A stretch of 64,000 bases of DNA, taken from a virus. The stretch lies in IMG/VR virus record IMGVR_UViG_3300015360_000042, positions 2,426-66,425 of that record, one strand, 5' to 3'. Positions 1-53,564 of this stretch are shown piece after piece. Each line of letters starts with the position of its first letter. Position 1 is the stretch's first letter. The notes below the pieces were generated by a model. It saw nothing but the letters and a program-made list of their open reading frames with translations. It had not been told where the DNA came from and searched no databases. A program made the position numbers and the translations under genes.

Positions 1-1071
1 AAATTTACTCTCGGTGGTCAGAGAGTTAAGGTGATGTTTGACGATGCCATGCACGGCATGATGCATTCAAACAAGCAACTAAGAGATTACTATAAAAAAA
101 TCCCAAGATTCTTAAGAGTCGGCAAATCAGAAATTTATCCATTTATTGGAAAATTCAAAGAACTAGAATTATTAGAGAAGATGATTCCTGCCATGAAAAT
201 TAATAAACTTTCTCAAGGTAATTTAGTCGCCCTTCCAGTGCCTGATAATTTCGATCTAGAGCAAGGTTTAAATGCCGCTAGACGAGTCGAGGGCATGGTC
301 AATAAGAAAGTAATGGTTGATCCAACTCAAGGCGAAATTACCGTTGAAGCGATCTTGTCCACGGCCGGAAAAACTAGGGTGATACCAGTTTTTGGCGACA
401 AGGGAAGATTAGATAAAATGGATTACAAGTCCGATGACGCAGACGATTTATTTACTAATACAAAAGAGATTCGTGAAAACATTTTGGATTCAGTAGGCGT
501 ACCGTCAGAATTAATCTATAAGTCGGACAATCTTTCCAAAACAGATATCTTGAAAAGGTATGCTAAATATCTCAGAAAATTAAAAAAACTAAGAAAGGCC
601 TTAGCGGAAGGTTTAAAAACTATTGCAGAAATTCATTTACAAAATAAAGGCATCTCGTATGTCGCAAAAGACATTGAAGTTACTTTTGTAAACACACTAG
701 TAGAGATTGACAACCTTGATAAACTTGAGCACGCCGACATCACATTTTCAATGCTCACCAATGCCAAAAATTTTATGGCCGACTTGGTTGCAGAGGATTC
801 ACCATATAAAGATTTAATTGATTTAAATAAGTTCGTTATTTACTTAGAATCAAATCTCAAAACAGTAGGCCTTCAAGATGTTTTAAAAACAAAAGAAGAG
901 GGCGGAAAATCAATTAATAAACTTGATCAGATAGGCGAGACTCCAGGTACTGATCTACCGGATGCGCCTTCTACTAAAGAAGTTCCTAAAGCAAATAAGC
1001 AACAAGAAAAATATCCAAACATACCATTCAAGGTGAACATGCCTGAAAAGAAATTAAGGAGAAGAGTGTGA
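1..1071 (+). CDS. Portal protein (T4 gp20-like), 5'-truncated by window edge
   Basis: Frame is open from base 1. The segment 'IRENILDSVGVPSELI...DILKRYAKYLRKLKKLRKALAEGLK' resembles the C-terminal half of gp20-type portals. It lies upstream of the core/protease/capsid genes. Confidence 0.7.
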   Translation, partial: KFTLGGQRVKVMFDDAMHGMMHSNKQLRDYYKKIPRFLRVGKSEIYPFIGKFKELELLEKMIPAMKINKLSQGNLVALPVPDNFDLEQGLNAARRVEGMVNKKVMVDPTQGEITVEAILSTAGKTRVIPVFGDKGRLDKMDYKSDDADDLFTNTKEIRENILDSVGVPSELIYKSDNLSKTDILKRYAKYLRKLKKLRKALAEGLKTIAEIHLQNKGISYVAKDIEVTFVNTLVEIDNLDKLEHADITFSMLTNAKNFMADLVAEDSPYKDLIDLNKFVIYLESNLKTVGLQDVLKTKEEGGKSINKLDQIGETPGTDLPDAPSTKEVPKANKQQEKYPNIPFKVNMPEKKLRRRV

Positions 1072-1613
1072 GCAAATTAAGAAGCGTGCTTGATAAACAC
1101 AACGCTGGTACTGAAAAAGTTGAAACCTTTGCGAGAGATACCCCACGTATTAACCAATTGAAAAAATATTTGGATACCATCGAGGATGGCATGGGACTTA
1201 TGCGTAACGGATTCATTGGCATATCAAACGCCTACGATAAAGCTGATGTTGAAGGCAAATTTAATTTAAACGCAATTCCAAATATCGTAATTTCTGAATT
1301 AGTAGATGACTTTCGTGATTGCGTATCAGACACGTTAGTTGATATTGAGCGAAATATTTACGAATCATTAAGCGAGGGTCAACATTACTCAACTAAATTA
1401 AGACAAGTTGAGGGTTCGGCCGGAACAAGAAAAGCAAGAATGGCAATCAAAGAAGCTAAGAAAATGGTTGAGAATTTTTTAGATACCGACCACGCCTCAC
1501 CAAGTCCAGTAGGCGAATCAGATACCAAAGCACTATCAATAGCAAAAGGTAATTTAGAAGAGGCAATTAAACAACTTCACGAAGCTAAAGTTGCAAAAAA
1601 AAGCAGGGGATAA
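1068..1613 (+). CDS. Hypothetical head-region protein (possible prohead/internal protein)
   Basis: GTG start overlaps the portal stop (GTGA), with RBS AAGGAG upstream. Charged, helical-looking sequence. Confidence 0.55.
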   Translation: MSKLRSVLDKHNAGTEKVETFARDTPRINQLKKYLDTIEDGMGLMRNGFIGISNAYDKADVEGKFNLNAIPNIVISELVDDFRDCVSDTLVDIERNIYESLSEGQHYSTKLRQVEGSAGTRKARMAIKEAKKMVENFLDTDHASPSPVGESDTKALSIAKGNLEEAIKQLHEAKVAKKSRG

Positions 1614-1615
1614 TA

Positions 1616-2233
1616 ATGAAGTTAGCAGAAGAACTTTTAGAAGATTTGGATGAATTATCTTTTAGTGCTTCAGTAGCAGATTATATTAAGGCAATGTTGT
1701 TACAATGGGACGGTTTATCAGAAGTGGTAAAGCTTACTGGTGTCAGCTATTGCAATGCTGATAAATCCTTGGCCATGGAGTTTGAAGATGACGAGGGCGA
1801 GACAATATTAATAGTGTTTCTGGAGATTGATAGCATACCATCTGTAGTTATTGTTGGCGAAGAAGACGAGGACGACGAGGTTATAGACTTGACCGACATC
1901 GGCCTAAAATCTTTTGATTTTGAGAATGAGCAAATTGATAATTGGTTAACACTTCCTCTACTATTAGACATTTTAGATGGTGATGAAGATTACGAAGACG
2001 ATGAGTTTGAAGAGGCATTTATTAATGTTATTCGCGGTGGAAAAAGAATTAAGAAAAAATTGAAACGAAAGAAACGTAAAATAATGACGAGTAAGAAAAG
2101 AGCAGGAATTAGAAAGGCCACTAGATCAAGAAAAAGAGGACTTAAGAAGGCGCTTAGAAAAAGAAAAAGGTCTTTAAAAATTAGAGGTCGAATGAAGCTT
2201 AAAAGAAAATCAAACCCAAAAATGAGAGTATAG
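1616..2233 (+). CDS. Prohead core protein (T4 gp68-like)
   Basis: Very acidic N-terminal three-quarters followed by an extremely K/R-rich tail (KKALRKRKRSLKIRGRMKL) like the gp68 C-terminus. Located between portal and protease. Confidence 0.6.
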   Translation: MKLAEELLEDLDELSFSASVADYIKAMLLQWDGLSEVVKLTGVSYCNADKSLAMEFEDDEGETILIVFLEIDSIPSVVIVGEEDEDDEVIDLTDIGLKSFDFENEQIDNWLTLPLLLDILDGDEDYEDDEFEEAFINVIRGGKRIKKKLKRKKRKIMTSKKRAGIRKATRSRKRGLKKALRKRKRSLKIRGRMKLKRKSNPKMRV

Positions 2234-2235
2234 TT

Positions 2236-2466
2236 ATGTCGTCCACTGCCTCATCAATTAAAAAACTATGTGCGAAATTAGGTACGCAAGCCGGAAGAGA
2301 GCTTGCTAAAAATATAAACAATGAAACTCGCACCTTGCTTGTAGGTGCAATATCCATGCTATCAATGGCGAGTGGTATGTCCGATACAGAACCTCAGAGT
2401 GCGAGACTTCTTTATAGTCAGGCAAGACGCTTGATAGGGACTAAGGTGCCAGATGCCAAACGATAA
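2236..2466 (+). CDS. Hypothetical protein
   Basis: 76-aa ORF tightly packed in the operon. Confidence 0.55.
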   Translation: MSSTASSIKKLCAKLGTQAGRELAKNINNETRTLLVGAISMLSMASGMSDTEPQSARLLYSQARRLIGTKVPDAKR

Positions 2467-2899
2467 CGATTTAGTTAAGGTTTATTTTCAACAATTAAAT
2501 GAGCGAATCAACCGATTCGAAATTTTAATTAGTAAACTGTTTGATAACCAAACGGAAATGATGACTAAGTTAGAGAGAAACGTTGTATCGTTTGAAGATA
2601 GTAAGCAAAAAAATATCGCGTTTGAATCAATCCTGGAAAAGATGGGACACCACATTTCTGATATAACAAGTAAATTAGTTTCAATGGAAAGAGATTTTAG
2701 CGGATTTCAGCGCGACGTACACGAGTTAGAAGAAGATATGACAATTGTAAAAAAACATGTTGATAAAGTTGATAGAACAATTTTTTTCTTTTCATCCTTG
2801 CCGTCGTTGGTTAAGGTTATCGTTCTATGTCTCACACTGATTACATCTGGCTATGGTTGTTATGTAATAATCAAACCTAAAGAAGAAGTGACGAGATGA
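2453..2899 (+). CDS. Coiled-coil protein with C-terminal transmembrane helix (holin/XhlA-like architecture)
   Basis: Heptad-rich body followed by hydrophobic 'LVKVIVLCLTLITSGYGCYVII'. RBS TAAGGT upstream. Confidence 0.5.
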   Translation: MPNDNDLVKVYFQQLNERINRFEILISKLFDNQTEMMTKLERNVVSFEDSKQKNIAFESILEKMGHHISDITSKLVSMERDFSGFQRDVHELEEDMTIVKKHVDKVDRTIFFFSSLPSLVKVIVLCLTLITSGYGCYVIIKPKEEVTR

Positions 2900-3708
2900 C
2901 ATCTTTTGAAGGATTATTTAAAATGACAAACAAAGGAGATTTGGGTTTGTCGGTGTCTCATAAAGTGAAAATCGATCTACTGCACGGGGATTGTATTGAG
3001 CTTATGAAATCTATACCTAGTAAAAGTATAGACATGATACTGACAGACCCTCCGTAGCTTTATGGCACAACAGCTTGTAAATGGGATTCAGTTATTCCCT
3101 TTGAACCAATGTGGATTGAATTAAAAAGAATCATTAAAGATAATGGTGCAATCTGTTTATTTGGTTCTGAACCTTTTAGTTCTGCTTTGAGAATGAGTAA
3201 TTTAAAAATGTTTAAGTATGATTGGGTATGGGAAAAAGAAAAGGGTACTGGATTCGCAAGGGCAAAAAAACAACCATTAAGGAAGCACGAAATAATTTCA
3301 GTCTTTTATCAGCACCAACCATTTTACAACAGTATTGGCAATATTCTGGATAAACCCTACTCGCATACATTGCCGATAAATAAAAGTGACTCTGATAATA
3401 TTAGTGGTAGTGGATATGATGAAAATAATAAAAGAATTTACATCACATATACACACGCATCAAAGCACACAATTATAAAAATAAGTAGAGATACAACAAG
3501 AAACTCAGTTCACCCTACTCAAAAACCCGTTCCATTATTAGAATATTTAATCAAAACCTACACATTAGAAAATGAAACAGTTTTGGATTTTACTATGGGT
3601 TCCGGTTCTACTGGTGTTGCTTGTAAGAATCTTAACCGTAGTTTTATTGGTATTGAAAAAGACGATGCTTATTTTGAAATAGCTAAAAATAGAATAAATA
3701 ATGATTAA
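2896..3708 (+). pseudogene. DNA amino-methyltransferase (beta-class N6A/N4C), copy 1, interrupted by an in-frame TAG inside the catalytic motif
   Basis: The frame from ATG 2896 (or GTG 2965) reads ...IDLLHGDCIELMKSIPSKSIDMILTDPP*LYGTTACKWDSVIPFEPMW..., with TAG at 3055-3057. It continues in frame into the 3109..3708 ORF, which has HPTQKP and DFTMGSGSTG (motif I). Confidence 0.85.
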
Positions 3709-4459
3709 TCTATTACATGGTGACTGTTTAGAATTAATGAAATCTATTCCTGATAAATCAATCAACTTAGCAGTCACCTCTCCACCTTATGACAATTTGA
3801 GAAATTATAATGGAACACTTGATTGGAATTTTGATATTTTTAAAGCAATTGCATTAGAGATAGCGAGAGTGCTTGAAGTGGGCGGTGTTATTGTTTGGAT
3901 TGTAAATGATTCAACAATCAAGGGAAGTGAAACAGGTTCTAGTTTTAAACAAGCACTTTATTTCAAAGAAGAGTGTGGGCTTAATTTGCATGACACAATG
4001 ATTTGGGAAAAGACGGGCCGAATACCTACACAGGACAGGTATTACGCGGTTACTGAGTATATGTTTATTTTCTCAAAGGGTAAGCCAAGGGCTATGAATT
4101 TCATTTGTGACCATAAAACGGTCAACGGTGGAAGGATTCAAAAAAAAGATGCTTGTATAAACAAAGGAAAGCAAAAAGAAGGGCAAGGTACTTTTATTAG
4201 AGCACATTTTTCGAGAAGATCAAATATTTGGAAAATTCATGTAGGAGAAAACTCAACAGGGCATCCAGCGGTGTTTCCTTTAAAGCTTGCTCAAGACCAT
4301 ATTATATCATGGTCAAATGAAGGAGATACTGTTTTAGACCCATTCATGGGAAGTGGTACAACTGGCCTCGCTTGTAAAAACCTTAACCGTAATTTTATCG
4401 GAATTGAAAAAGATGACAAATACTTTGAAATAGCTAAAAATAGAATAAATAATGATTAA
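3701..4459 (+). CDS. DNA methyltransferase, beta class, probably N4-cytosine (SPPY), copy 2
   Basis: TSPPY motif IV, HPAVFP, and DPFMGSGTTG motif I. Confidence 0.92.
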   Translation: MINLLHGDCLELMKSIPDKSINLAVTSPPYDNLRNYNGTLDWNFDIFKAIALEIARVLEVGGVIVWIVNDSTIKGSETGSSFKQALYFKEECGLNLHDTMIWEKTGRIPTQDRYYAVTEYMFIFSKGKPRAMNFICDHKTVNGGRIQKKDACINKGKQKEGQGTFIRAHFSRRSNIWKIHVGENSTGHPAVFPLKLAQDHIISWSNEGDTVLDPFMGSGTTGLACKNLNRNFIGIEKDDKYFEIAKNRINND

Positions 4460-5168
4460 TTTACTACACGGTGATTGTTTAGAACTTATGAAAAAAATTC
4501 CAGATAAATCTATAGACATGATCTTAACTGATCCTCCTTATCAAACTACACAATGTAAGTGGGATATAATTATTCCCTTTGAACCAATGTGGATTGAATT
4601 AAAAAGAATCATTAAAGATAATGGTGCAATTTGTTTATTTGGTAGTGAACCGTTTAGTTCTGCTTTAAGAATGAGTAATTTGAAAATGTATAAATACGAC
4701 TGGATATGGGACAAGGTTAAGCCTAATGGGCATTTGAACGCTAAGAAGCAACCCTTGGTTCTTAGTGAGCAGATAATGGTTTTTGGTAATGGCAGGGTAA
4801 ACTATTTACCTATTATGGAAAAAAGGGATAAAGTCAAAACTTCTAAGGTTTATTCTGTTTCCGCTGTTTACACACACACACAAAAGATAGACATTAACAC
4901 AAGAATTTACTCACATAGATACCCTAAAAACCATATAAAGATCAGCAATGCCTCACAGAAAAACAGAACACATCCCACACAAAAACCAATTCCGTTATTA
5001 GAATATTTAATCAAAACATATACATTAGAAAATGAAACAGTTTTAGATTTTACTATGGGTTCCGGTTCCACTGGTGTTGCTTGTAAGAACTTAAATAGAT
5101 CATTCATTGGTATTGAAAAAGATGACAAATACTTTGAAATAGCTAAAAATAGAATAAATAATGATTAA
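4452..5168 (+). CDS. DNA amino-methyltransferase, beta class (DPPY), copy 3
   Basis: TDPPY, HPTQKP and DFTMGSGSTG. Confidence 0.93.
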   Translation: MINLLHGDCLELMKKIPDKSIDMILTDPPYQTTQCKWDIIIPFEPMWIELKRIIKDNGAICLFGSEPFSSALRMSNLKMYKYDWIWDKVKPNGHLNAKKQPLVLSEQIMVFGNGRVNYLPIMEKRDKVKTSKVYSVSAVYTHTQKIDINTRIYSHRYPKNHIKISNASQKNRTHPTQKPIPLLEYLIKTYTLENETVLDFTMGSGSTGVACKNLNRSFIGIEKDDKYFEIAKNRINND

Positions 5169-5922
5169 TCTATTACATGGTGACTGTTTAGAATTAATGA
5201 AATCTATTCCAGATAAATCAATTGATATGATCTTAACCGATCCACCCTATGGAACTACTTCATGTAAATGGGATTCAGTTATTCCATTCGATCCAATGTG
5301 GATTGAATTAAAAAGAATCATTAAAGATAATGGTGCAATTTGTTTATTTGGTTCTGAACCTTTTAGTTCACATCTTAGATTGAGTAATTTGAAAATGTTT
5401 AAATATGATTGGATTTGGAACAAAAATAGTTGTTCGGGATTTTTGAACGCAAAAGTAAAGCCAATGAATACCACAGAAATAATATCCATTTTCTCCAACG
5501 GGAAAACATCAAGTGGCAATAAAAATAATATGGTATATTATCCCCAAGGATTAAAGAAATACGAGAAGATAACAAAAAACGGAAACAAGATCGGAAAAGA
5601 AATGACAGGTGCGAGAAAGAACTCCACGCCTTCAACAACCATAGGGTATTTGCAAGAATTTACCAATTACCCTAGAAATTATTTAGAATACGGTTATCAA
5701 AAAAAAGCTGTTCATCCAACTCAAAAACCAGTTTCATTATTAGAATATTTAATCAAAACCTACACATTAGAAAATGAAACAGTATTAGATTTTACAATGG
5801 GAAGTGGTTCTACTGGTGTTGCTTGTATTAATTTAAATAGATCATTCATTGGTATAGAAAAAGATGACAAATACTTTGAAATAGCTAAAAATAGGATTAA
5901 CGAAGTCAAGGATGGAAAATGA
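5161..5922 (+). CDS. DNA amino-methyltransferase, beta class (DPPY), copy 4
   Basis: TDPPY, HPTQKP and DFTMGSGSTG. Confidence 0.93.
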   Translation: MINLLHGDCLELMKSIPDKSIDMILTDPPYGTTSCKWDSVIPFDPMWIELKRIIKDNGAICLFGSEPFSSHLRLSNLKMFKYDWIWNKNSCSGFLNAKVKPMNTTEIISIFSNGKTSSGNKNNMVYYPQGLKKYEKITKNGNKIGKEMTGARKNSTPSTTIGYLQEFTNYPRNYLEYGYQKKAVHPTQKPVSLLEYLIKTYTLENETVLDFTMGSGSTGVACINLNRSFIGIEKDDKYFEIAKNRINEVKDGK

Positions 5923-6626
5923 AATTTCTAAACGATTTAGATGCCAAAACTTTTCTATTAGAGATTGGCGCTTACGATAAGGTAACAAATGCTAATAAAG
6001 GCTACGAGCCAACCGACGAAGAAATGGCCACGTTCGTAAAATCGCGATCAAAATTATCGTCTGGACTAAAAGACTACAGAAAGGCATCAAAACAAAAAGC
6101 AAATTGGAGAAACAATAGAACAAAAATGATGAAAGGAATTAAGGCCTTCCATCGCTCTGTTGATGGTAAACGATTTCATAGAAATCTTGGGCGATTTTTG
6201 GCATCAAGGATTTCAAGATCAAAAAATGAATCATTAACTTTTTTTGAAAAAGGCGATCAGCTAAAGGCGCTTTGTTCGGCAAAACAACATTTGTTTTTAG
6301 AACTTGATTACTTCCATCAAATTGAAGAACAAATAGAATTGGAAGAAATATTTTTAGATCATTCGATCCCGTTGTTTCAGTCAATTGAAAATAAGTTATT
6401 AAATGAGGGCGATCTAGATACTGACGAATTATCTTTTTTATTAGATTTTACTGACAGAAACAACCTTTTCGCGGCACTTTCGGAGAAACTAGCTAGACCA
6501 TTTGAAGAAATTTCGAGTATGTGGCAAAATATGGAAAGCGAGTTAGAGTCAGAAAATATTGCAAAAGACGATGATAAGTTCTATCCTACTCTAATCGATA
6601 GACTTAACGTAGCATTAGGATTTTAA
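5919..6626 (+). CDS. Hypothetical head-region protein
   Basis: ATGA-coupled to MTase 4 and abuts the protease gene. Basic N-half, acidic C-half. Confidence 0.6.
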   Translation: MKFLNDLDAKTFLLEIGAYDKVTNANKGYEPTDEEMATFVKSRSKLSSGLKDYRKASKQKANWRNNRTKMMKGIKAFHRSVDGKRFHRNLGRFLASRISRSKNESLTFFEKGDQLKALCSAKQHLFLELDYFHQIEEQIELEEIFLDHSIPLFQSIENKLLNEGDLDTDELSFLLDFTDRNNLFAALSEKLARPFEEISSMWQNMESELESENIAKDDDKFYPTLIDRLNVALGF

Positions 6627-7991
6627 ATGGCAAAAATTTTAGATGTAATTAATCCATCAATTAAATTTGAATTGTTTGAAGATAATTCTAATGAGGTTGA
6701 CGGAGTAAATATTCTCGGCAAGGTAGTTGGTCAATTTTTTTGTCCAGATGGCACATCAAGAAATGGGCGCTTTTATCCAAAGGCGTTGTGGGAAACAGTG
6801 ATCGATTCAGAAGTTGTGAAAACAGCACTATCTCGAAGATTAATGTTTGGTACAATTGGGCACGATGCAGAGTTAGGTGACAAGGGATTAAGAGAGGGAG
6901 CCGCATCTCACACCATGACAAAAATTTGGATTGAAGATAACAAAGGCATGGGCGAGGCACTGATTTTAAATACACCAGCGGGAAGATATTTAAATACTTA
7001 TCTGAGAGCAAAATGTCAGCTTTACGTTAGCTCTAGGGCCAACGGTGGATACAAAGGTAAAGTAAACGGTGTTCCATCGGTCGATCCAGAAGGTTATGAA
7101 TTAGTTGGATGGGATTTTGTTATTGACCCAGGATTTTTACAAGCAAACCCTTCACTAGCTGAAGGATATAATAAATTGAAAGAAGAATTAAACATAGATT
7201 TTACATTAGGAGATAGTATGGACAAGACTTTGGTAGAACACATTATGAAAGAAAACACTGAACTTAAGTCAAAAGTAACTTCATTATCGAGCGAAGTGGT
7301 TGCGCTTAGGGCCAGTAATGATTCTCTTTTTGAAGAATCAAAAGATTTAAAATCTGGTCAGGAAGATTTAGATAAATATAAAGAAGTAGGAACAGTAAAA
7401 GAAATTGAGGAACTTGTTGATGTTGCTGATAAAATGGGCAAAGAAAACGACGAACTTAAAAAAGAACAAGAAGCTTTTCTAACTTTAGGCGAGTCTTTTA
7501 ATTCAATTAAAAGAGCATTAGAAGTTTCACTAGCTGTAAAAAATACGATTAAAGAAAAATTCACATCTTTAGCAAAAATTGAAGAATTTTTAGACTTATC
7601 AGAAAAGTTTGAAAAAGAAGTTTCAAGCATCGGTTCTTTAAAAGAATTAAAGCAAATTAAACAAGCTCTAGGTTTCTTACTAGCAGAAGCTGAAGAAGTT
7701 GATTTGGCAAAAGATGTTGCATCACTTTGTGCTGAAACAGGACTATCAGAAGACGAAGTAAAAGAACTATTGAAAAAACATACTGCTGAAGAAATTAAAA
7801 ACATTTATCAAAAAGTGGCCGAGCGTTTTAATAAAAAGAAAATTGCTGAATCTGTAACACCTGTTACAAAAGCAGATGATAAGTTTAAGAAGAAAAAATT
7901 CAATGAAGATGCATCTCAAAAAATTGTTCAAGATGCACCTATGAAAACACGTATTGAAAGAATGAACGAAAGATTGGCACGAACATTTTAA
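6627..7991 (+). CDS. Prohead protease (T4 gp21-like) fused to coiled-coil scaffold
   Basis: SRNGRFYP, GTIGH, ASH, LNTPAG, VSSRANG and WDFVIDPGF are gp21/U9-type protease motifs. Long E/K-rich coiled-coil C-terminal half. Directly upstream of the capsid gene. Confidence 0.88.
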   Translation: MAKILDVINPSIKFELFEDNSNEVDGVNILGKVVGQFFCPDGTSRNGRFYPKALWETVIDSEVVKTALSRRLMFGTIGHDAELGDKGLREGAASHTMTKIWIEDNKGMGEALILNTPAGRYLNTYLRAKCQLYVSSRANGGYKGKVNGVPSVDPEGYELVGWDFVIDPGFLQANPSLAEGYNKLKEELNIDFTLGDSMDKTLVEHIMKENTELKSKVTSLSSEVVALRASNDSLFEESKDLKSGQEDLDKYKEVGTVKEIEELVDVADKMGKENDELKKEQEAFLTLGESFNSIKRALEVSLAVKNTIKEKFTSLAKIEEFLDLSEKFEKEVSSIGSLKELKQIKQALGFLLAEAEEVDLAKDVASLCAETGLSEDEVKELLKKHTAEEIKNIYQKVAERFNKKKIAESVTPVTKADDKFKKKKFNEDASQKIVQDAPMKTRIERMNERLARTF

Positions 7992-8070
7992 TTATCTAAA
8001 TCTGACCTACACTTTAGGCTGATGACAATTATTAAAGTAAATTTACATAAACTATAATTTTGGAGAAACT

Positions 8071-9486
8071 ATGAAAGAAGCAATTTTCGAGGCCATTGAT
8101 GGCCAAATGGTAGAGAGCTACTTTAAGATGTACCGTCCTCACATGGAAGTGCTAGAGAAATCTTTGCTAAACCGTGCTGTTGGGGTTACGGATCATCATC
8201 TTATTCAATTAGGTAAACAATTAGACGCGTACAGAAATTACGAAAAACTGCTTGAAAACAGCGGTTCATTAAACACTTTAGGTGAATTACCAAAAGTTGC
8301 TTTAGACGTTATTACTGCTACTTTTGCAAACTCAATTCTTGGTGTAATCGCTACTACTCAAACTATTGATCAACAAAAACAAATTGTTTACTTCAAAAAT
8401 TTGAGATCAGATTCTACTAAAGGAAATTTAACTGCAGGACAAACTATCGTTGATCCAAGATCACCTATGGTGACACCTTCTGCGTTCGCTTCTAATGAAG
8501 TTGCCTCAGAAGTGCTTGTTGCAACTGCCGCCGCTACATTAGTCTACAACGGTACTTGTGCTATTCTTCCAGTACGCTCGCAATTCATTTACATCTCTGT
8601 TCAAGACGATGTCACTGTTTACTGCGAAGACGTTGGACCACGCGGATCTGATAAAAACATTGGTTCTCTATTGGGTGCTGGATTAAGCGGTACAATCAAC
8701 TACACAACTGGTGCTGTTGCTCTACGTTTTGCTGTTCAACCTGCTCAACCGAAATCAGTTTTTATTAAGTATCAACAAAATTTGGAACTTGCTTCTGATC
8801 TTCCAAAAATGAATTCTTTTTTAGATCACGTTACTATCGAAGCCAAAGCATACGCTTTAAAATCAGTAATGGGTATTTTCCAATCGTTTGCTCTTAAGAA
8901 ACAATTAGGTGACTCTGCTGTAGACGATATGGCAATGGACTTAGTAAGAGAAATCAACGCAGAGATCGGTGGCGATTTTATTCGTCAATACGACGCTCAA
9001 GCTGTTGGTAACACCAACTTTTCTTTAACTGCGCCAGTAAACGTTGCTGAGAAATTACACCGCGAATCATACGCATTTCGTATGGCCGATGCAGAAGCTG
9101 TAATGATCGGTAATGCTGGTCGTGGAGCGATTAAAGTTATGATCGTTGGTACCGAACATGCCGCTCTAGTTCGCGGTTTAGATGGCTTTCAATTACTATC
9201 AGATGGTAATTCTCTTGGCGCTCATATTTTTGGTACTTACAAAAGTATCACTTATATTCGCGTGCCAGAGGCTTCTTTACTTGCGGCAAAAGCAGGTATC
9301 GCTCTTTACACTGGTGCGTCTCCTTTGGAGTCAGCTGGTGTTTACTCTCCGTTCATGCCTTTGACCATGGTTCAAGCTCCAGCAAATTCGTTAAATCCAT
9401 TAATGGATCAACGTGTTGCCGCTACTATGGCAGGAACAAAAGTTGTTGTTCCAGCTTATGCGACTAAATTAACTATTACGGCTTAA
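8071..9486 (+). CDS. Major capsid protein (T4 gp23-like)
   Basis: 471 aa with 'TIEAKAYALK', 'LVREINAEI' and 'AGVYSPFMPL' (gp23-like). Strong RBS GGAG, high-expression codon style, followed by a terminator. Confidence 0.9.
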   Translation: MKEAIFEAIDGQMVESYFKMYRPHMEVLEKSLLNRAVGVTDHHLIQLGKQLDAYRNYEKLLENSGSLNTLGELPKVALDVITATFANSILGVIATTQTIDQQKQIVYFKNLRSDSTKGNLTAGQTIVDPRSPMVTPSAFASNEVASEVLVATAAATLVYNGTCAILPVRSQFIYISVQDDVTVYCEDVGPRGSDKNIGSLLGAGLSGTINYTTGAVALRFAVQPAQPKSVFIKYQQNLELASDLPKMNSFLDHVTIEAKAYALKSVMGIFQSFALKKQLGDSAVDDMAMDLVREINAEIGGDFIRQYDAQAVGNTNFSLTAPVNVAEKLHRESYAFRMADAEAVMIGNAGRGAIKVMIVGTEHAALVRGLDGFQLLSDGNSLGAHIFGTYKSITYIRVPEASLLAAKAGIALYTGASPLESAGVYSPFMPLTMVQAPANSLNPLMDQRVAATMAGTKVVVPAYATKLTITA

Positions 9487-9496
9487 TACGCTGTAC

Positions 9497-9530
9497 AGAA
9501 GGGAGATGAAATATTCTCCCTTCTTTTTAT
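9497..9530 (+). terminator. Rho-independent terminator after capsid gene
   Basis: AGAAGGGAGA-tgaaatat-TCTCCCTTCT, then TTTT. Confidence 0.85.
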
Positions 9531-9543
9531 TTAAAGGATTGTT

Positions 9544-9939
9544 ATGAAAGTAAAATTAAAAAATTTATCAGAAGGCCAAACAACAATAAAACCAAATATT
9601 GGTGCCTATCGTCCTTTCATTAATTTAAAGGCGCACGAGGAACTAGTTATTGTTGAAAATGAGATTACAGAGTACAGCGTGGCACTGCATGGTTTAGTTA
9701 TCGCTGGTGTTTTGTCAAAAATTCTTGAAGATGAAACTGCGATAGACGATGAACCGGTAGGTATTGACGAGGTATTGTTATTAACTGCAGTGGAGTCTCA
9801 AATTGCTATCGACGCTGTGAAAGTTGAAATAAAGTCTTTAGAGGTTGAATTTAAATCATCGACCGTAACTAAGGAACGTAAGAAAGAAATTAAAGACGAA
9901 GTGCTATTATTAAAGCAAAAAATTAAAGCGCTTAAGTAA
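9544..9939 (+). CDS. Hypothetical protein
   Basis: 131-aa ORF with RBS AAGGA and a C-terminal coiled coil. Confidence 0.6.
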   Translation: MKVKLKNLSEGQTTIKPNIGAYRPFINLKAHEELVIVENEITEYSVALHGLVIAGVLSKILEDETAIDDEPVGIDEVLLLTAVESQIAIDAVKVEIKSLEVEFKSSTVTKERKKEIKDEVLLLKQKIKALK

Positions 9940-9948
9940 GAGGTTTTT

Positions 9949-10629
9949 TTGAAAATACAGGAAATCTTCGATAGAACCTTAATACGGTCTGGACAATTTG
10001 TTCTTGCGAAAAGCAAGGTAGAATTGGACATTGATAATTTTAGGGTGTTGGTCGAAGATGCACTGGCGGAATACAATAAACATAAACCAATTGATAAAAT
10101 TTATAACTTAGAATTGGTTTCTCCCAGACAATACAATTGGGATTTACACTTAGATCCTATTTTTAATCGTTCACCTGATTGGATTAGTGAATGTACTCCA
10201 ATGAAGTACGGCGCGGTTTCAATATCTTCTTTCTACATGCAAAATTATTATAACCAAGAGTCTCAGTATTTAATTAACCCAACCGAGGCACCTTGGGATT
10301 ATACAAAACCGCTATTAACAGTACCGTTCTCTTCAAGATATAAAATTATTGCAGTGTACAATCATACAATAGAACAAGTCATGGATGATCAAGGTCTTCC
10401 AACAAACGATTGGGAAATTAAATCAATTTCGTCAAAAGATACTCATCTATTAAAACTAATCCAGGCCTATTTTCTTCAAGGTATAGGACGAAGTAGAAAG
10501 GCATTCACTTTAAACGATTTACCCATCATTATGGATGCCGATGCAATAGCCGCTGAGGGTAACGAACTAGAAGAAAAAACATTAGAGGGATTACGAAATT
10601 CATCTAAATTTCATTTATCAATGGGATAG
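9949..10629 (+). CDS. Putative neck/head-completion protein (gp13-like)
   Basis: TTG start with RBS GAGG. 'IGRSRKAFTL...MDADAIAAEGNELEEKTLEGL' resembles neck-1 C-termini. Position after the capsid gene fits. Confidence 0.6.
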   Translation: MKIQEIFDRTLIRSGQFVLAKSKVELDIDNFRVLVEDALAEYNKHKPIDKIYNLELVSPRQYNWDLHLDPIFNRSPDWISECTPMKYGAVSISSFYMQNYYNQESQYLINPTEAPWDYTKPLLTVPFSSRYKIIAVYNHTIEQVMDDQGLPTNDWEIKSISSKDTHLLKLIQAYFLQGIGRSRKAFTLNDLPIIMDADAIAAEGNELEEKTLEGLRNSSKFHLSMG

Positions 10630-26983: not shown

Positions 26984-29900
26984 ATGGCTATTGCAGGTTT
27001 ATTTACGTCCGTCGGTATCTCAAAATGTATTGATGCCCAAAATAATCAAGGTTTTAAAATACACCCATTATCTTTTGGTGTGAGTAGAGACTACAGTTTG
27101 TTTTCTAATGCATTGGTAGCTCCGAACGCTGGCCAATGGTTTACTGATACCATCTCAGCAAGAGTAGTTGTGGACTTAAACACAGTTAAAGTTGTTTGTA
27201 CCGTGCCTCCAGGATCTTCACTGCTTGCCGATAATATTAAAGAAGTTTACTTATATGCAAAAGATAGTTTGAATGTTGATTTTTTATTAGCATTTGGGCA
27301 ATCCTCAGAAATTATTCGATACGATCCGACTGGAACAATTACTTTAGAACTACAATTGTCACTTGCCGATGTTGATCTAAGCTCAATTTTCGTTTTCAAT
27401 AATACTAAAGCAACCGAATTAGCAGAGCACATTATTGATGTAAATGCTCATCCTGAAATTTCAGAGACATTATCTAAACACGGTATCTTTTTACCGTTGG
27501 GCGCTTATCCATTCGAGAGAACAGGTCAGCAAACTGAATTTCCAGTAAACTTCGATGGCACTAAAGCAACTTTCACACACGATAGCGTAATCTGGACGGC
27601 CACTTACAATGGTACTGAACTAAATACCGAAACAATTATTTTCAATGGTGCTAGAACAAACGATGTAGTTAGGGCCGATTTTAATGCATTAAATTATCCA
27701 AATACAGTAGAGCATAACGGTTCAGGTGTTGGGATTTCAGCGGCGTCTACAAAAACATTGGCAGGTGGAACATATATCGTTCAAGATAAAGACATCGTCT
27801 ATAAAGACGTTGATGGCACATACAAGCGTGCGCTTGCTGACGGTACAATTAAATCTCGCGTGGCGGGTATTGCTAGGATTGTCACTAAGTCAGTTTTGAC
27901 TAGAGGTGTAGTAGATATTAATACAGGTTTCGCAATTAGTGCTCCGGTTTACTTATCTGGTAGCGCACCAGGTGCATTAGTCTCTTTCGATACAAACATA
28001 AATCTTGGTTTATGTTTAGGTAATTTTGTTTTATTTACTGGTTTCGGTGGCGATATTACCGCAAATGTTACACAAGATTTTGATGCGGTCGTTTCAGATG
28101 TACCAGGCCTTGGGCAGTACGCTAGAACACAAGACGCTATCAACGTTGTACCAACAGACGGTAGAATTTTAATTAACAAATTAGAACTAGTAAAAGAAAC
28201 TATCGATACACTAAGTAAAAATCTATCAATCGTTGTCGGCGGGTCCAACAAAGGTTGGAAGAAATTTGCTGGTGTTAGCACACAGTTTAAAATAAACTTC
28301 GCGGCCGTTCCAACTCAAGGTTCATGGCGAATAGAATGGGAATCACAAGAAACGACTGATCTTGCTTTCAATGCGTCCGCAGGAACGATTCAAACAGCGT
28401 TTAACTTATTTAGCGGTCATAATGGTGTAACGATTACTGGAAATTATACAATTGGTTTCACTGTTGCATTCAATGATTTGGATACCTACACGCTACCAAC
28501 ATTTAACTTTACAGGGTTAAACGAAGTTCAAAGATTTAATTTTTCAAATATTCCAGACAACGGGACAATTACCTTTCAAAAAGATGCGAGCAATACTTTA
28601 AACTTTCCATGGGATGATGACGCCTCAGATTTAAAAATTGCGTTAGAGGCGTTACCAACTATTTCAAATATCGCTGTGACAGGATCTTTTGGTGCTGGTT
28701 TTTTCCAAATTGAGTTTCAAGGTGGATGGCTTCAAGATGGGCTAAAAGATCAATCTCTAATTTCTGTTTTTCAAACCGCTTTATCTTTAGGTGCGTCTGT
28801 AACAAATGTAAACGGTACAACAATCATTCCGATTAATGCGCTAGTTATTCAACAAGGTAAAGCGAAAGCATCGAACTTGTTTAACGGAACTACGCCAATC
28901 GCTATATCGACGCTATTCTTACAAGAAGGTCTTCCAGTAGGCGAACAAAGATTAATGAACGTAACTTCATCAAAATTATCTATTAGCGGTATGGGTAAAA
29001 TTGAAGATTTCGAAGAAGGTATCGTACTAGGAAATACCTCAACTAAAATTGTATTTTCAGGTTATTTTGTAAATACAAATAAAAAAATATTAACTAATAG
29101 TAAATTGGCCGGTGTTGATTATTTAATTGAAGTACCAGAGTTTGCAAGAGATGTAATTTCGCAATTTAAAATTTCCGAACATCCTACACTTAAAAAAAGA
29201 ATTATTATTTCATCGGGTAAACAATTTTTACCTAACGGCATCACTTTAAATAATCAAGTTCAAAATTCGTTAGTAGATTTTGCTGGTGCTCAAATTGATT
29301 TTAGTACGGGTGTTATCTATGAAGCAGACGGTGTAACATCTCTGGGTTCATCGTTTACTCCAGCTGTAATCACTGCAGATCAATTCAGATGGGTATCAAT
29401 TAACTTATTTCCGTTAAGCACTAACGCCGATAAATCAATAAAACTAGGTCTTAATGTTGTGTATGCTACTGTTGATGGTTCAACTCCAACACTCGCGGAG
29501 AAAGCAACATTTGGAGATATCCCAATTGGTTGTATTTGTATTAAGGGTGCACTAGGTAAAAAAGAAAAAACAAAAATCAGAACAGTAAAAGATACGAACG
29601 ATTCTTTGAAAGGTAAGACGTTAAAAGTTTATCATCCGTCTGAATCAGTAGCTTTTTGGTTCAGCGATCCCTCACTTGATAATTTTACAACAACACATAC
29701 AACAGCGGTTGTAGGTACTAACGCTGACACACTAAATACTACAGACAAAAAAATTGTAGCGTTTAAAATGGTAATTGGTTCGACTAAAATTGTTGACCAC
29801 GTAGCTTTATATTTAAAGAAGCAAGGGCTACCTACTGGAACCATGAGTGTTCGAATTTTAAATAATAATTCAGGTCAACCAGATACGGCTTCAGTAGTTG

Positions 29901-46322: not shown

Positions 46323-46576
46323 TGAATTATTTCCAAGTTTTTCGCCTTAAAGCCTTTAACGCCTTTGTGAAGATCAAACTCTACAACTTGTCCTTCTTGT
46401 AATTTTTTAAATTGGTCCTGCCACGATACGTTTGGTTGTATATCTTTAAAATGAATAAACGCATCTTTATTTCTGTATCTAAAATCCTCGTCTGATATCT
46501 TAATAAACCCAAAAGATTTAGTTACATTGTACGCAGTTACTGTTCCTCTAACTCGAATTTCTAAATTTTCAATCAT
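46319..46576 (-). CDS. Cold-shock domain protein
   Basis: RNP1 'KSFGFI', RNP2 'AFIHF', and 'LQEGQVVEF...KGFKAKNL'. Confidence 0.9.
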   Translation of the reverse strand: MIENLEIRVRGTVTAYNVTKSFGFIKISDEDFRYRNKDAFIHFKDIQPNVSWQDQFKKLQEGQVVEFDLHKGVKGFKAKNLEIIQ

Positions 46577-47073
46577 AATCCCTTCTTATATCCATATAGT
46601 GCAATTAATGCCGCATCGATGTATCCGTCATGAGGAACCTTACTTCTAGTTGAGGCAAGAAAGGTTTCTTCTGGAAATAGTCTGCTAGCTGTTATTAGTG
46701 CTATTTTCTTATTATCTTTTCTACCATCTTTTTTGAGATACATTTTAGTACCGAGACAAATTACTCCCTGCCAAGTTTTCGGAATAACCGATGTGACTGG
46801 TATGCCAAGTAGTGATCCAATTGCTCGAATAACGGCCACCTGACTTCCAATACTTATTGCCGCTGATTTTGAATATCCAAAAAATCCAGCAAACTTTTCA
46901 GTTACAATATGACATGTGCCTTTAGTTTTTAACTTTAATAGTGTTGAAGAAATTTTTCTGTAATTAACTTCGTCTCCACCAATTAGCGGCATTATTTCCT
47001 TATGCACAATTTTACCGCGCGTGATGACAACTATTGCCCCTTTTTTTCCAGGGTCTATTCCAATGTAAAACAC
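46573..47073 (-). CDS. ruvC: RuvC-like Holliday junction resolvase
   Basis: 'YIGIDPGKKGA', 'VTE', 'PKTWQ' and 'HDGYIDAALIA'. Confidence 0.88.
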   Translation of the reverse strand: MFYIGIDPGKKGAIVVITRGKIVHKEIMPLIGGDEVNYRKISSTLLKLKTKGTCHIVTEKFAGFFGYSKSAAISIGSQVAVIRAIGSLLGIPVTSVIPKTWQGVICLGTKMYLKKDGRKDNKKIALITASRLFPEETFLASTRSKVPHDGYIDAALIALYGYKKGL

Positions 47074-50353: not shown

Positions 50354-51505
50354 TTACTCCGCTCCTTCTGTATCTTCGATTGCTTCCTCGACCAAATCAT
50401 CGCTATCAATCTCGCCGACCATGATTGGTTGAATGATTTTTGGTTCCGCATCTATTAGGTCTGAAATGGTGGCGTACACCGCACCTGTTTCGATTGAGGT
50501 ATATCGTGGAGCGGCTCTTTTATTTTCTCTAATAGTTTCGATGCTAATTCGATTGTGATTTAGTAGTAGTTCGTCCACGCCTTTAAATGGATCGATACCT
50601 TTGCTAAATAAAGTTTGAACCATTGCCTTTTGAAATGGTGCTACGTGCCGATTTTTAATCGCGTGCCATTCGGCCCTAATACCAACTTGCATTTCTATTT
50701 CTTTCTTAACTGTGCTGTGTACTTTCTTATTTAATTTTTTTGCTGTTCTGCCTCTAATTCGTTGTGTACACCAAAATTTTATAACCTCTTCGCCTAAGGT
50801 ATAAGTAGGATTACCAAAAACTACGCCCTTCTTTGTTCGTGTTTGATTGATTAAGATCAGTGTCGCGCCGTATGTATCCAAATCACCAACGAACTTCTCA
50901 ATTGATTGAGAAAATTTTAAGTTTTTTTGCATTGCCGCGTATCCTTTTGGGTCGGCCCCTTCCTCGTAGCCCTTCATTACATCGCGTGTTTGTAATGATG
51001 GAAAAGAATCCAATCCAATTAATATTGGCGCTGTCTTATCTTTTTTTCTAATTGATAAAATGTATTTTAACATTAGTGGAAATAAGTTTTCAATAATGCG
51101 CTCCTTTGTAATAGCAAAGGTGCCATTCATTGAGATTTTATTTGCTAGCGCAATATTTTTTGAAAATGCTCTTTCACCATCTTGTAGCAAAGCGTATCCG
51201 CCCATTGCTTGTACCGATGAGATTAATTCGTATAGTAAATAGCTTTTTCCCACCATGCTATCGCCTGAAACCTCTATAAACTTTCCACCTAAAATACCAC
51301 CTGTAATAAAATTTAAAGCATGACTTTTAAATGGGATAATATATGGTACGTCTGATAAATCATTAGTATCTGACATGATCTCAAACTCGAAATCTTTTAA
51401 ATCAGCTTCTAACGAATCAATAACGGCCTTAGAACGGTCTTGAGTCTTCATCGTCTGTGTCTTCTTTTTGATTGCTTCTGGTGCTTTGTTTTTTACCTTT
51501 ACCAT
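50354..51505 (-). CDS. recA: RecA/UvsX-like recombinase
   Basis: 'GGILGGKFIEVSGDSMVGKS', 'IGLDS', 'INQTR...FGNP' and 'KNRHVAPF'. Start ATG 51505 with RBS AAGGAG. Confidence 0.92.
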   Translation of the reverse strand: MVKVKNKAPEAIKKKTQTMKTQDRSKAVIDSLEADLKDFEFEIMSDTNDLSDVPYIIPFKSHALNFITGGILGGKFIEVSGDSMVGKSYLLYELISSVQAMGGYALLQDGERAFSKNIALANKISMNGTFAITKERIIENLFPLMLKYILSIRKKDKTAPILIGLDSFPSLQTRDVMKGYEEGADPKGYAAMQKNLKFSQSIEKFVGDLDTYGATLILINQTRTKKGVVFGNPTYTLGEEVIKFWCTQRIRGRTAKKLNKKVHSTVKKEIEMQVGIRAEWHAIKNRHVAPFQKAMVQTLFSKGIDPFKGVDELLLNHNRISIETIRENKRAAPRYTSIETGAVYATISDLIDAEPKIIQPIMVGEIDSDDLVEEAIEDTEGAE

Positions 51506-53564
51506 TTTCCTTCTCCTTCTCGTAATTAATAAAAAATTCTTTAACATTTTGATCTCTTTTTTCGTTTGTTAATTGAAATCCGCAATGATTTGAATCATTA
51601 GTTGCTCCTGCGTAAGCGAAATTTTGCATGGACATAAACGGCGAGCTAATAGTTTCAAACCGTCCAAGTTGTCCTTCGATTGCGGATAAATACAATTGAT
51701 GTTTGGGTCTAGTAATGGCAACGTAGAATATTCTATGTTCCTCAAGTACGTCTTCCGCTCTATAAAATGGATACGTCTTATTAGAAATGCCGACTACGAA
51801 CACATGCTCAAACTCTCGTCCCTTTGCTTTATGAATACTCATTAATTGAACTAAATCATCGCTCTCGTCATTATCTTTTAAATCCTTCGTGCGCATCTCC
51901 ATGGCATCAATGAATTCTAAGAAATCTTCTAAATCGCTAAATTTCTCGGCCGTTGTTCTAATAGAGTCGAGATTCATAATTAAATCGCTATCTAATTCAT
52001 TGTCTTGATTCTCTTTCTCTACGAATTTTTCATAACCCATGTCTTTTAAAATATAGTTTATTAAATCGCAAACCTTAGAGCCAGATTGATATCTGCTTTG
52101 ACCTGTTGAGATATCTTTCAATAGTCTAGTTAAGCCGTTTATTGCGTATTCCGATAGCGGTGATCTATGGTCGTCAACTACGTCAGTGAGCGCGGAATAA
52201 AATGAACCACCCTGCGTATCCTTAACTTTTGAAATGTGCATGAATACATCATTACTTATGTAGCGTACTGGCTTATTTGCAATCCGTTGTAGCATTGTCT
52301 TATTCATTTTCTCTGGCCTTAAAAACAGAGCTAGGTAGGTTAAAATATCTTGAACTTCTTTTTTTCTATAGAAACTTGTTTCGATATATGTTTTATATTT
52401 AATATTTGCAAATACTAGCTCCAATTCAATTTGTTGTGATAGTGAGTGTGCTCTATAAATTACAGCAATCTCACTTGGATTTACGCCAGATTTTATCAGT
52501 GAGTTTATTTTATCCGCAATAGTAATTGCCTCTTCACCATCGCTTTTGCTTCTATAGTAAATGACTTGTTCACCAATCGGGTTATCTGTTACAGCTGGCG
52601 CACCGAGTAGCTCAGGATAATGAGTCATGAACTTGTTTGAGTTTTCAACAATCGCCTTAGTTGATCTATAGTTTTTTGGGAGATCAATAATCTTTGCATT
52701 GTAGTGTTTAATGAAGTTTGGAATATTGGAAACATTGGCCCCTGCAAAAGCAAATATAGATTGTCTTCTGTCTCCAATGATTGTTACGTTTCTTGATTGC
52801 GCCAATTCATAAATAATTTTAAAGTTTAATGTTGACGTATCTTGTGCCTCGTCCACAAGTAAATGTTCTATTTTTGAAGTGTAGTCGTTTTTAAAAATTT
52901 CGTATGCAGGTAGTGTCATTACTTTATACGCACCTAATAAAATATCAGCAAAATCTATTTTATTAAATTTAAGACAGGCCTTATTATACTCTTCCCAAGT
53001 AGCCGCAACACAACACACGTATGGGTAACGACTTGGTTCACCAGCTTTTTGAACTTGCGTATCAAACTGTATTTCTTTTTTATACTGCGCTAAATCGTTT
53101 CCCATTACTTTTTGAAAACCGATATCCTTTAAATGTGTAACAACCGCTTTATTACTCAAGCCAATTTTTTTAGCATGTAACAGAAGTGGCATCATATAGA
53201 AAATAGGATTAGATAAAATAGATGGCATTGAATAATAAGGGTCGATACTTAATCGACCACCTTTAAAAATTTTATAAGCTAAAGAATGAATAGTGCTAAT
53301 TCTTAACTTTTCGGTGACTTCTTTGCCTATTATTTTAGTTAGTCTGTCTTTGATTTCCTCTGCCGCCTTTTTAGTTAATGTACACGCAACTATTCTGCTT
53401 GGTTTAATATTTTTTTCTTTTAGTAGATATAGAATTTTTGTAACGAGTGTTTTTGTTTTGCCAACACCCGCAGAGGATAATACGGCCAGCGGTCCGTCGT
53501 TATATAGGACAACAGCTTTTTGATGTTCGTTTAATTCTTTTAGATATTCCATTTCAATTTCCAA
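51429..53564 (-). CDS. uvrD: UvrD/PcrA-family SF1 helicase
   Basis: 'SAGVGKT', 'VDEAQD', 'GDRRQSIFAF', 'NYRS', 'SIHKAKGREF' and 'YVAITR'. Confidence 0.93.
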   Translation of the reverse strand: MEIEMEYLKELNEHQKAVVLYNDGPLAVLSSAGVGKTKTLVTKILYLLKEKNIKPSRIVACTLTKKAAEEIKDRLTKIIGKEVTEKLRISTIHSLAYKIFKGGRLSIDPYYSMPSILSNPIFYMMPLLLHAKKIGLSNKAVVTHLKDIGFQKVMGNDLAQYKKEIQFDTQVQKAGEPSRYPYVCCVAATWEEYNKACLKFNKIDFADILLGAYKVMTLPAYEIFKNDYTSKIEHLLVDEAQDTSTLNFKIIYELAQSRNVTIIGDRRQSIFAFAGANVSNIPNFIKHYNAKIIDLPKNYRSTKAIVENSNKFMTHYPELLGAPAVTDNPIGEQVIYYRSKSDGEEAITIADKINSLIKSGVNPSEIAVIYRAHSLSQQIELELVFANIKYKTYIETSFYRKKEVQDILTYLALFLRPEKMNKTMLQRIANKPVRYISNDVFMHISKVKDTQGGSFYSALTDVVDDHRSPLSEYAINGLTRLLKDISTGQSRYQSGSKVCDLINYILKDMGYEKFVEKENQDNELDSDLIMNLDSIRTTAEKFSDLEDFLEFIDAMEMRTKDLKDNDESDDLVQLMSIHKAKGREFEHVFVVGISNKTYPFYRAEDVLEEHRIFYVAITRPKHQLYLSAIEGQLGRFETISSPFMSMQNFAYAGATNDSNHCGFQLTNEKRDQNVKEFFINYEKEKENGKGKKQSTRSNQKEDTDDEDSRPF

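Follow-up and report, generated by a model that had tools for sequence, protein, structure and literature searches.

How could a phage come to carry four DNA methyltransferase genes in immediate succession, whose ends and catalytic parts recur from one gene to the next while their middles do not, and what would such a row be for? We take up this question for a locus at positions 2896-5922 of a 64,000-nucleotide (nt) stretch of viral DNA, referred to here as the window, which comprises bases 2426-66425 of the 66,425-base IMG/VR record IMGVR_UViG_3300015360_000042 and to which all coordinates refer unless another contig is named. Our preferred reading, to which we give a probability of about 0.7, is that the locus is an accessory mosaic block of orphan class-beta methyltransferase genes, three intact and one recently dead, and constitutes an anti-restriction kit built by recombination.

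The four open reading frames (ORFs) lie head to tail on the + strand and all match PF01555, the beta-class N6/N4 methyltransferase family. A first-pass annotation of this DNA had called them four beta-class amino-methyltransferases, and their scores of 115.1, 156.6, 115.0 and 118.2 bits for copies 1-4 are all above the gathering cut-off of 26.7, copy 1 being read through its stop. Copies 1-3 end in KNRINND* and copies 2-4 begin with MINLLHGDCLELMK, and each of the three inner junctions is the 8-nt overlap ATGATTAA; the stop-start overlaps and the recurrent KNRINND* had been described earlier and are found at all three. At the outer borders the TGA of the upstream gene overlaps the ATG of copy 1, and copy 4, whose 3' end is a private KNRINEVKDGK*, overlaps the ATG of the following gene with its TGA. 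We refer to the catalytic N-core and the S-adenosylmethionine (SAM)-binding C-core together as the frame, and to the stretch between W-x-W and HPTQKP as the target-recognition domain (TRD). The array is composed as follows (aa, amino acids).

2896..3057, + strand: N-terminal fragment of copy 1, 53 aa, a private 24-aa leader followed by IDLLHGDC...TDPP, ending at an in-frame TAG
3055..3060, + strand: 6-nt insert TAGCTT within motif IV (DPP/*L/Y), which breaks copy 1
3061..3708, + strand: remainder of copy 1 in the same frame, first ATG at 3109, with N-core, TRD type 1 (about 3232-3510) and SAM-binding C-core
3673..3750, + strand: junction unit 1/2, the 3' end of one gene, ATGATTAA and the 5' end of the next; the same as 5133-5210
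3701..4459, + strand: copy 2, SPPY/HPAVFP subfamily, intact, 252 aa, with a core (about 3761-4355) foreign to the other copies
4403..4453, + strand: junction unit 2/3, 51 nt, identical to 5112-5162
4452..5168, + strand: copy 3, DPPY type, intact, 238 aa, with TRD type 3 at about 4710-4970
5133..5210, + strand: junction unit 3/4, the same as 3673-3750
5161..5922, + strand: copy 4, DPPY type, intact, 253 aa, with TRD type 4 at about 5419-5712

The repeats quoted in the first-pass annotation are exact in position and extent, with 78/78 nt identical between 3673-3750 and 5133-5210, 61/61 between 3092-3152 and 4570-4630, and 47/47 between 3535-3581 and 5737-5783. The three inner junctions are near-identical, unlike the outer ends of the array, which have diverged: over 60 nt the 5' end of copy 1 agrees with the others at about 40 positions, and copy 4 closes with 25 nt found in no other copy. 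Exchange between neighboring repeats would fit this combination better than selection on the protein. The overlap junctions have no Shine-Dalgarno motifs; motifs of this kind stand ahead of 23 of the 43 + strand genes. A sigma-70-like hexamer pair, TTGAAA-17-AATAAT (10/12 matches), is present at each inner junction (3674-3702, 4425-4453 and 5134-5162, + strand) with its -10 box ending at the ATG of the next gene; promoter-like hexamers in 1-10000 are not above the level in shuffled sequence (36 found versus 33.4 expected).

The firmest sign of conversion in place comes from copy 2. It had been singled out as a member of a different subfamily (SPPY, HPAVFP) that carries N- and C-terminal ends of the array type, and this is borne out at the nucleotide level. 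Its first 50 nt are exactly those of copy 4 and its last 51 nt exactly those of copy 3, and codon alignment gives 59/60 identities with copy 4 over its opening 60 nt and 45/45 with copy 3 over its final 45 nt, around a core that is unrelated. The subfamily itself is large, with at least 8000 database proteins, and among the best 120 listed are full-length homologues 60-73% identical to copy 2; in 13 aligned members the N- and C-terminal sequences differ from those of copy 2. Because its ends match those of its neighbors down to synonymous sites, and do not resemble those of its own subfamily, they were evidently converted to the array's own sequence.

In the other three copies the contrast lies between frame and TRD. 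DPPY or SPPY occupies residues 27-30, a variable region follows, and MGSGSTG or MGSGTTG stands near the C terminus. Since class-beta enzymes are described as having the order motif IV, TRD, motif I (PMC7544214), the variable segment occupies the position of the class-beta target-recognition domain, as had been supposed. It measures 93, 87 and 98 aa between W-x-W and HPTQKP in copies 1, 3 and 4, and the earlier statement that these roughly 85-100 aa are largely unrelated agrees with a mutual identity of 18-30%, with resemblance confined to the first 25 or so residues after W-x-W. On either side the picture is reversed. Codon alignment of copies 1, 3 and 4 gives 90-100% nt identity over much of the N-core (about PFEPMWIELK to YDWIW) and again from HPTQKP onward, versus chance level (about 35-55%) in the middle. 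Exact tracts of 26-61 nt connect every pair of copies, and the clustering of identities is beyond chance: of 5000 shuffles of the codon columns, only 20, 19 and 23 gave runs as long as the 61, 49 and 60 nt observed.

The closest relatives of the TRDs lie outside the array. For copy 1 they are found in L058 (60% over 88 aa), the second gene of L021 (53%) and L032 (39%); for copy 3 in L005 and L010 (49-50%) and L006 (41%); and for copy 4 in L050 (44%), L019 (42%) and L011 (38%). The frames that carry these related TRDs are only 69-88% identical in aa to those of the array, versus 90-91% among copies 1, 3 and 4. The TRD types thus recur in other phages on different frames, in agreement with the proposal of conserved flanks around swapped middles. 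Separate trees, a comparison that the first-pass annotation had put forward, also disagree. They include 63 members, namely copies 1, 3 and 4 and 60 distinct ORFs from loci L005-L084 with at least 200 bits, 215-290 aa and the motif HP[TC]QKP; copy 2 and its relatives are not among them. The frame tree pairs copies 1 and 3 (99/90) and unites copies 1, 3 and 4 with L007 and L009 in a five-row clade (95/93). By their TRDs, copy 1 clusters with L058, L021 and L032 at a Shimodaira-Hasegawa-like approximate likelihood ratio (SH-aLRT) of 100, and copy 3 falls within a group of 8-9 rows at 84-89. An approximately unbiased (AU) test finds that the frame data reject the copy 1 group defined by the TRDs (difference in log-likelihood, delta lnL, 114.6; p 0.0001), and the reciprocal test is marginal (p 0.046). 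Frames and TRDs are therefore supported as having separate histories, and since the incongruence is family-wide, swaps would have occurred somewhere, if not in this array.

The first-pass annotation needs one correction, in that copy 1, which it treats like the other copies, is broken. The sequence in frame is ...TDPP-TAG-CTT-TAT(Y)GTTACKWD where copy 3 has TDPPYQTT and copy 4 TDPPYGTT, such that the 6-nt insert places an amber stop inside catalytic motif IV. The insert is also present in unitigs. We consulted Logan unitigs of four public runs, X1-X4, of which X1 holds 93% of the stretch and X2-X4 cover parts of it at low depth, the parts that they leave uncovered being uninformative; a unitig of X1 covers 2400-3105, including the insert, at a depth of 16.4 with 0 differences. 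TAG serves as the stop of 13 of the window's 61 long ORFs, and the window is devoid of tRNA genes, so the TAG in copy 1 is taken as a real stop, and its rescue by recoding or suppression is ruled out. With motif IV interrupted, copy 1 would fail as an enzyme. No other stop occurs in the remainder of the frame, and because of this the break looks recent.

The whole array sits as an insert in a run of head genes, as is seen by comparison with contig L085, whose capsid is 62% identical to that of the window phage and which is the sole relative recovered by capsid queries in viral contigs. The gene order in L085 is portal, 207 aa, 79 aa, 141 aa, 243 aa, protease-scaffold and capsid, with no methylase. 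The two boundary genes of the array are the following.

2453..2899, + strand: upstream boundary gene, 148 aa, coiled-coil with a C-terminal hydrophobic tail, a conserved head-module gene
5919..6626, + strand: downstream boundary gene, 235 aa, a conserved head-module gene

The 148-aa product corresponds to the 141-aa protein of L085 (4000-4425; BLASTP E 4e-19), and the 235-aa product is 47% identical to the 243-aa protein at L085 4433-5164. In L085 the two homologues are 7 nt apart with nothing methylase-like between them. Because both flanking head genes are directly adjacent there, the array is an accessory insert of about 3.0 kb, with no spare non-coding DNA, within a conserved head-gene run. 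This run is on the + strand, and its sole strong terminator-like site (9497-9524) follows the capsid gene. The methylase genes are orphans in the sense that both neighbors of the array are head genes kept in L085 and no restriction endonuclease adjoins it.

Arrays of this kind recur in other contigs, in shorter form. If genes on the same strand with a gap below 100 nt are counted as directly tandem, such methylase genes are seen at 5 of the 80 viral loci found with copy 3, at 8 of the 79 found with copy 2 (two of these contigs are already counted in the copy 3 set, and two pairs among the eight look like the same phage from two samples), and at 3 of 79 loci in prokaryote assemblies; no tandem locus in these three samples reaches four genes. 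L021 has two adjacent genes that are 95-100% identical in nt over the first 30 codons and 93-100% over the last 45, with a middle at about 40%, and one of the two has the TRD type of copy 1. In L078 an SPPY-type gene is followed by a DPPY-type gene, in the order of copies 2 and 3, and the ends are shared. L114/L115 have two SPPY-type genes in tandem, with a third gene about 1.4 kb on in L114, and L102 has a direct run of three, of which one is of the DPPY type and two are of the SPPY type, so arrays occur outside the DPPY frame family as well. Run X4, from a microbial mat, contains a 1016-nt methylase contig that matches 3508-3695, 4470-4549 and 5308-5413 at about 90% around unrelated sequence. 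This appears to be another combination of frame and foreign middle, and suggests that related genes with other middles are present in similar samples.

What the enzymes are likely to do can be narrowed somewhat. The closest solved structures by sequence are CcrM, DpnA/M1.HpyAVI, M.MboIIA, M.RsrI and M.BceJIV, and a structural model of copy 3 (predicted local distance difference test, pLDDT, 90.8) finds M.BceJIV, CcrM, M1.HpyAVI and M.MboIIA by Foldseek with E values of 3e-17 to 5e-16 and template-modeling (TM) scores of 0.66-0.75; the model is weak only at the loop after DPPY and in part of the variable segment (residues 131-150). The best PADLOC models are PDLC03251, Type II methyltransferase, for copies 3 and 4, and PDLC03714, orphan methyltransferase (oMTase), for copy 2. 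The two intact DPPY-type copies probably make N6-methyladenine, and SPPY points, as a rule of thumb, to N4-cytosine. The earlier claim that the window has no cognate nuclease stands insofar as PHROGs identifies no restriction enzyme among 57 ORFs and PADLOC none among the 14 non-methyltransferase ORFs, and is weakened in that no family could be assigned to 34 of the 57 and CheckV estimates the record at 56% of a complete genome. Three other kinds of variable locus were considered for the array and rejected: an attC/integron array (there is no intergenic DNA and no hairpin, one weak 27-nt, 70% inverted repeat is all that 2500-6500 contains, and no integrase is found among the 57 ORFs; exchange would proceed through homology inside coding sequence and not through site-specific recombination), a shufflon or simple-repeat phase switch (Tandem Repeats Finder returns nothing inside 2896-5922, and apart from that weak one there are no inverted repeats), and retroelement-driven variation (no reverse transcriptase among the 23 of 57 ORFs with a PHROG family).

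The phage itself is an uncultured, contractile-tailed myovirus. The window has a GC content of 35.5%, and scanning its 57 long ORFs at E 1e-5 assigns PHROGs families to 23; those on the + strand include the head maturation protease, major head protein, tail sheath, tail tube, baseplate and fiber genes, and a - strand replication and recombination block has DNA polymerase, primase-helicase, UvsX-like recombinase, SbcCD-like nuclease subunits and a Holliday-junction resolvase. Two genes of this block matter below.

50354..51547, - strand: UvsX-like recombinase (phrog_97, E 4e-32)
46573-47073, in the - strand block: Holliday-junction resolvase (PHROGs)

Cultured phages are distant, the best capsid match being 40% to Rhizobium phages. 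Megablast against 50,697 phage records and a query of viral contigs with the downstream gene found no sister phage, nor did two metagenome scans, for which the patterns were probably poorly chosen. The methylase frame is found in bacterial and archaeal assemblies at 44-60% identity, and its homologues in metagenome-assembled genomes are spread over so many phyla that they give no host signal.

Several further features of this genome deserve mention. A 181-aa gene (1068-1613, + strand) lies between the portal gene and a 205-aa acidic/basic gene. L085 lacks such a gene at this point, its portal gene being followed directly by the 207-aa gene, which makes this a second small insertion in the head module. 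The acidic/basic protein (1616-2233, + strand; L085 3141-3764) is conserved in the head module; its front half is strongly acidic, its C-terminal tail is almost all K/R (KKKLKRKKRK...), and it may be a packaged DNA-binding protein or an internal head protein. Just upstream of the portal gene in L085 is an 87-aa ORF (1254-1517, + strand) with the sequence IFIGGLNYSTTE...KGYGFATF, which, judged by eye, looks like a eukaryote-type RNA recognition motif (RRM) RNA-binding domain; the corresponding region of the window phage would fall before base 1. In the tail-fiber region a 2404-aa ORF (26984-34198, + strand) has no PHROG family at E 1e-5, and is followed by ORFs of 855 and 728 aa, with a tail-fiber match for the 728-aa ORF only.

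If the array is an anti-restriction kit, we envisage that it works and changes as follows. By precedent the genes would be transcribed with the head genes as one late message, and translation would pass from gene to gene at the ATGATTAA overlaps, probably in coupled fashion. The three live enzymes would mark different short motifs on progeny DNA before packaging, such that a phage marked in this way would, by analogy, enter its next host already protected against several restriction systems. Successive TRDs would be separated by a near-repeat of about 450 nt made up of C-core, junction and N-core, and homologous recombination in these near-repeats would have joined frames to TRDs of separate descent, both within the array and with methylase genes of other phages, and would also have overwritten the ends of a non-orthologous gene, copy 2. 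Either TRDs have moved into frames or frames have been overwritten around TRDs. The anatomy suggests that an in-register crossover, within the array or with the gene of a co-infecting phage, would yield intact genes while TRDs are lost, gained or replaced, and we infer from this that cassette gain and loss may be ongoing. The phage's own UvsX-like recombinase and resolvase could drive such exchange between diverged repeats.

A number of observations weigh against this interpretation. Searches for a sister phage that carries another set of cassettes yielded none, the sole relative, L085, being without the array, and neither this comparison nor the short unitigs showed a cassette gained, lost or duplicated. 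With one copy dead the full set is not under selection now. The order of the genes comes from a short-read assembly in which repeats are exact over as much as 78 nt, and each repeat interrupts the unitigs; run X1 is probably the window's own sample and is thus not independent support. About 44% of the genome lies outside the record and could hold a nuclease partner. The TRD tree is a quick one of 94 columns in which copy 4 has no resolved place, the TRD-defined group in the AU test at p 0.0001 was named after both trees had been seen, and rejection of a clade of copies 1, 3 and 4 by the TRD data is borderline (delta lnL 52.4). Moreover, frames from outside are as close as those within, at 90-91% aa identity for L009 and 86-90% for L007. 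At the nt level the frames are 81-86% identical within the array versus 83-88% to L009, and a 77-nt exact tract is common to copy 1 and L009, an unrelated contig. The term homogenised flanks in the first-pass annotation was hence too strong as a statement about overall identity, and holds for the patchy identical tracts. Because outside contigs are equally close and the window phage has no head genes in common with any of the 80 methylase-bearing viral loci, the frame is a scaffold strongly conserved across the family and passed around between unrelated phages, and the three DPPY genes could have come whole from a pool with near-identical frames.

This last point leads to the most serious competitor, which we consider unlikely but worth keeping in view, namely that whole genes were stacked from a habitat-wide pool and that the junctions are alike through selection on the stop-start overlap. 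The frames of L009 and L007, at 86-91% aa and 79-88% nt identity to the array and so as close as the copies are to each other, are what it would predict, and copy 4 aligns with L050 over 727 nt, TRD included, at 74%. It leaves unexplained, however, the array-type ends of copy 2 at synonymous sites (59/60 and 45/45 nt) and the incongruence of frames and TRDs across the family. Plain tandem duplication, followed by fast divergence of the TRDs through point mutation under diversifying selection, would account for the head-to-tail order and the common frames. Against it, the TRDs resemble those of unrelated phages (39-60% identity) more than one another (18-30%), the frames contain exact tracts of 47-78 nt, and copy 2 comes from another subfamily; the TRD relatives, the TRD tree and the AU test on the frames already contradict it. 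Of all the explanations we regard this as the least credible.

It is also very improbable that the array is an artefact in which alleles of one locus from coexisting strains have been strung together. Exact repeats of up to 78 nt at which unitigs break are the setting in which this could happen, and no record spans the array, but alternative alleles would add up to the backbone depth of about 17, whereas the unique parts of copies 1-4 have unitig depths in X1 of 15.5, 18.1, 19.4 and 22.1, each near the backbone values of 16.4 and 17.3, and sum to about 75, or about 4.4 times backbone. The possibility of a strain chimera, raised along with the original proposal, is thus opposed by the depths, and tandem pairs and triples recur in independent contigs. 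Two joints in X1 (3291->4971, and 3594->4346, which equals one 751-nt cassette period) were considered as deletion variants and discarded, since their short sides of 21 and 25 nt are typical of repeats. The methylases could instead serve the phage's own biology, by marking DNA for packaging or replication, in gene regulation, or as the modifying half of a phage-borne restriction or exclusion system whose nuclease would be encoded in the part of the genome beyond the record. With a record that is little more than half complete and 34 of 57 ORFs without a PHROG family there is room for a partner, but both neighbors of the array are head genes kept in a methylase-less relative, and several unrelated specificities together with a tolerated dead copy suit a dispensable kit better than a core function; we think such a role improbable. 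A long shot of another kind is that the shared frames allow mixed dimers, conceivable because class-beta enzymes act as dimers and the frames are near-identical. Within such a dimer, recognition of the DNA and its methylation can fall to different subunits (PMC7544214), and the array might then act as a combinatorial generator with more specificities than genes, including asymmetric sites, to which even the dead copy 1 remnant could contribute as a recognition-only partner.

A mosaic anti-restriction kit would be of interest for several reasons. Restriction-modification is the commonest bacterial defense, and the tracking of shifting natural specificities by phages is known mostly from single genes in cultured phages. 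The compact arrangement would make the recognition domain exchangeable independently of the frame, and crossovers between constant stretches, when in register, would change specificity without a non-functional intermediate. The natural breakpoints, after W-x-W and before HPTQKP, could be used to engineer class-beta methylases of chosen specificity. Since the same build recurs in unrelated phage contigs, the array may also serve in metagenomes as a marker of restriction pressure between phage and host.

Among known systems, the Bacillus phages SPR, phi3T and rho11s encode multispecific cytosine-C5 methyltransferases with several TRDs on one catalytic core. As in these, one phage here has several recognition domains that could cover several restriction specificities, although in SPR, phi3T and rho11s they are part of a single C5 polypeptide, whereas here each TRD has its own amino-methyltransferase frame and ORF. 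The orphan methyltransferases of lactococcal 936-type phages were shown to confer protection from HphI and DpnII (Murphy et al. 2014, PMC4190342), and their genes likewise lie among those for packaging and structural proteins; each of them is a single gene with a known motif. Phage orphan methyltransferases are reported as the commonest known genes of variable islands, with 51 genes or 11% of those known (Bellas et al. 2020, PMC7468147), and the authors propose that they are swapped by recombination in response to differing host restriction systems. What they describe is replacement of whole genes between near-identical phages, in contrast to a tandem array with shared frames and breakpoints at the level of domains. 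Closer in geometry is the lpl tandem cluster (PMC2568036), in which the evolutionary unit spans two adjacent genes. There too, tandem paralogues are reshuffled at a conserved stretch, with the 3' part of one ORF passing into the 5' part of the next, but the conserved recombination site is described as central and the ends as variable, whereas our locus has conserved ends and junctions, variable centers and no intergenic DNA.

The nearest parallel is with the Type III mod genes of Helicobacter pylori, for which movement of TRDs through conserved motif-coding DNA and incongruence of trees have been described (Furuta and Kobayashi 2012, PMC3467074). The two systems have in common class-beta enzymes, conserved flanks around the TRD, incongruent trees and TRD homologues in distant genomes. 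The mod genes, as described there, are chromosomal, belong to restriction systems at separate loci and were compared across many strains, unlike the small, orphan, Type II-like phage genes at this locus, which are adjacent and overlapping and include a non-orthologous member with converted ends. Full-text literature searches returned no description of a tandem phage array of class-beta orphan methylases with swapped TRDs and converted junctions. The mechanism is already known in outline, and the locus overturns nothing; it extends a mechanism of the Helicobacter chromosome to the orphan methylases of phages.

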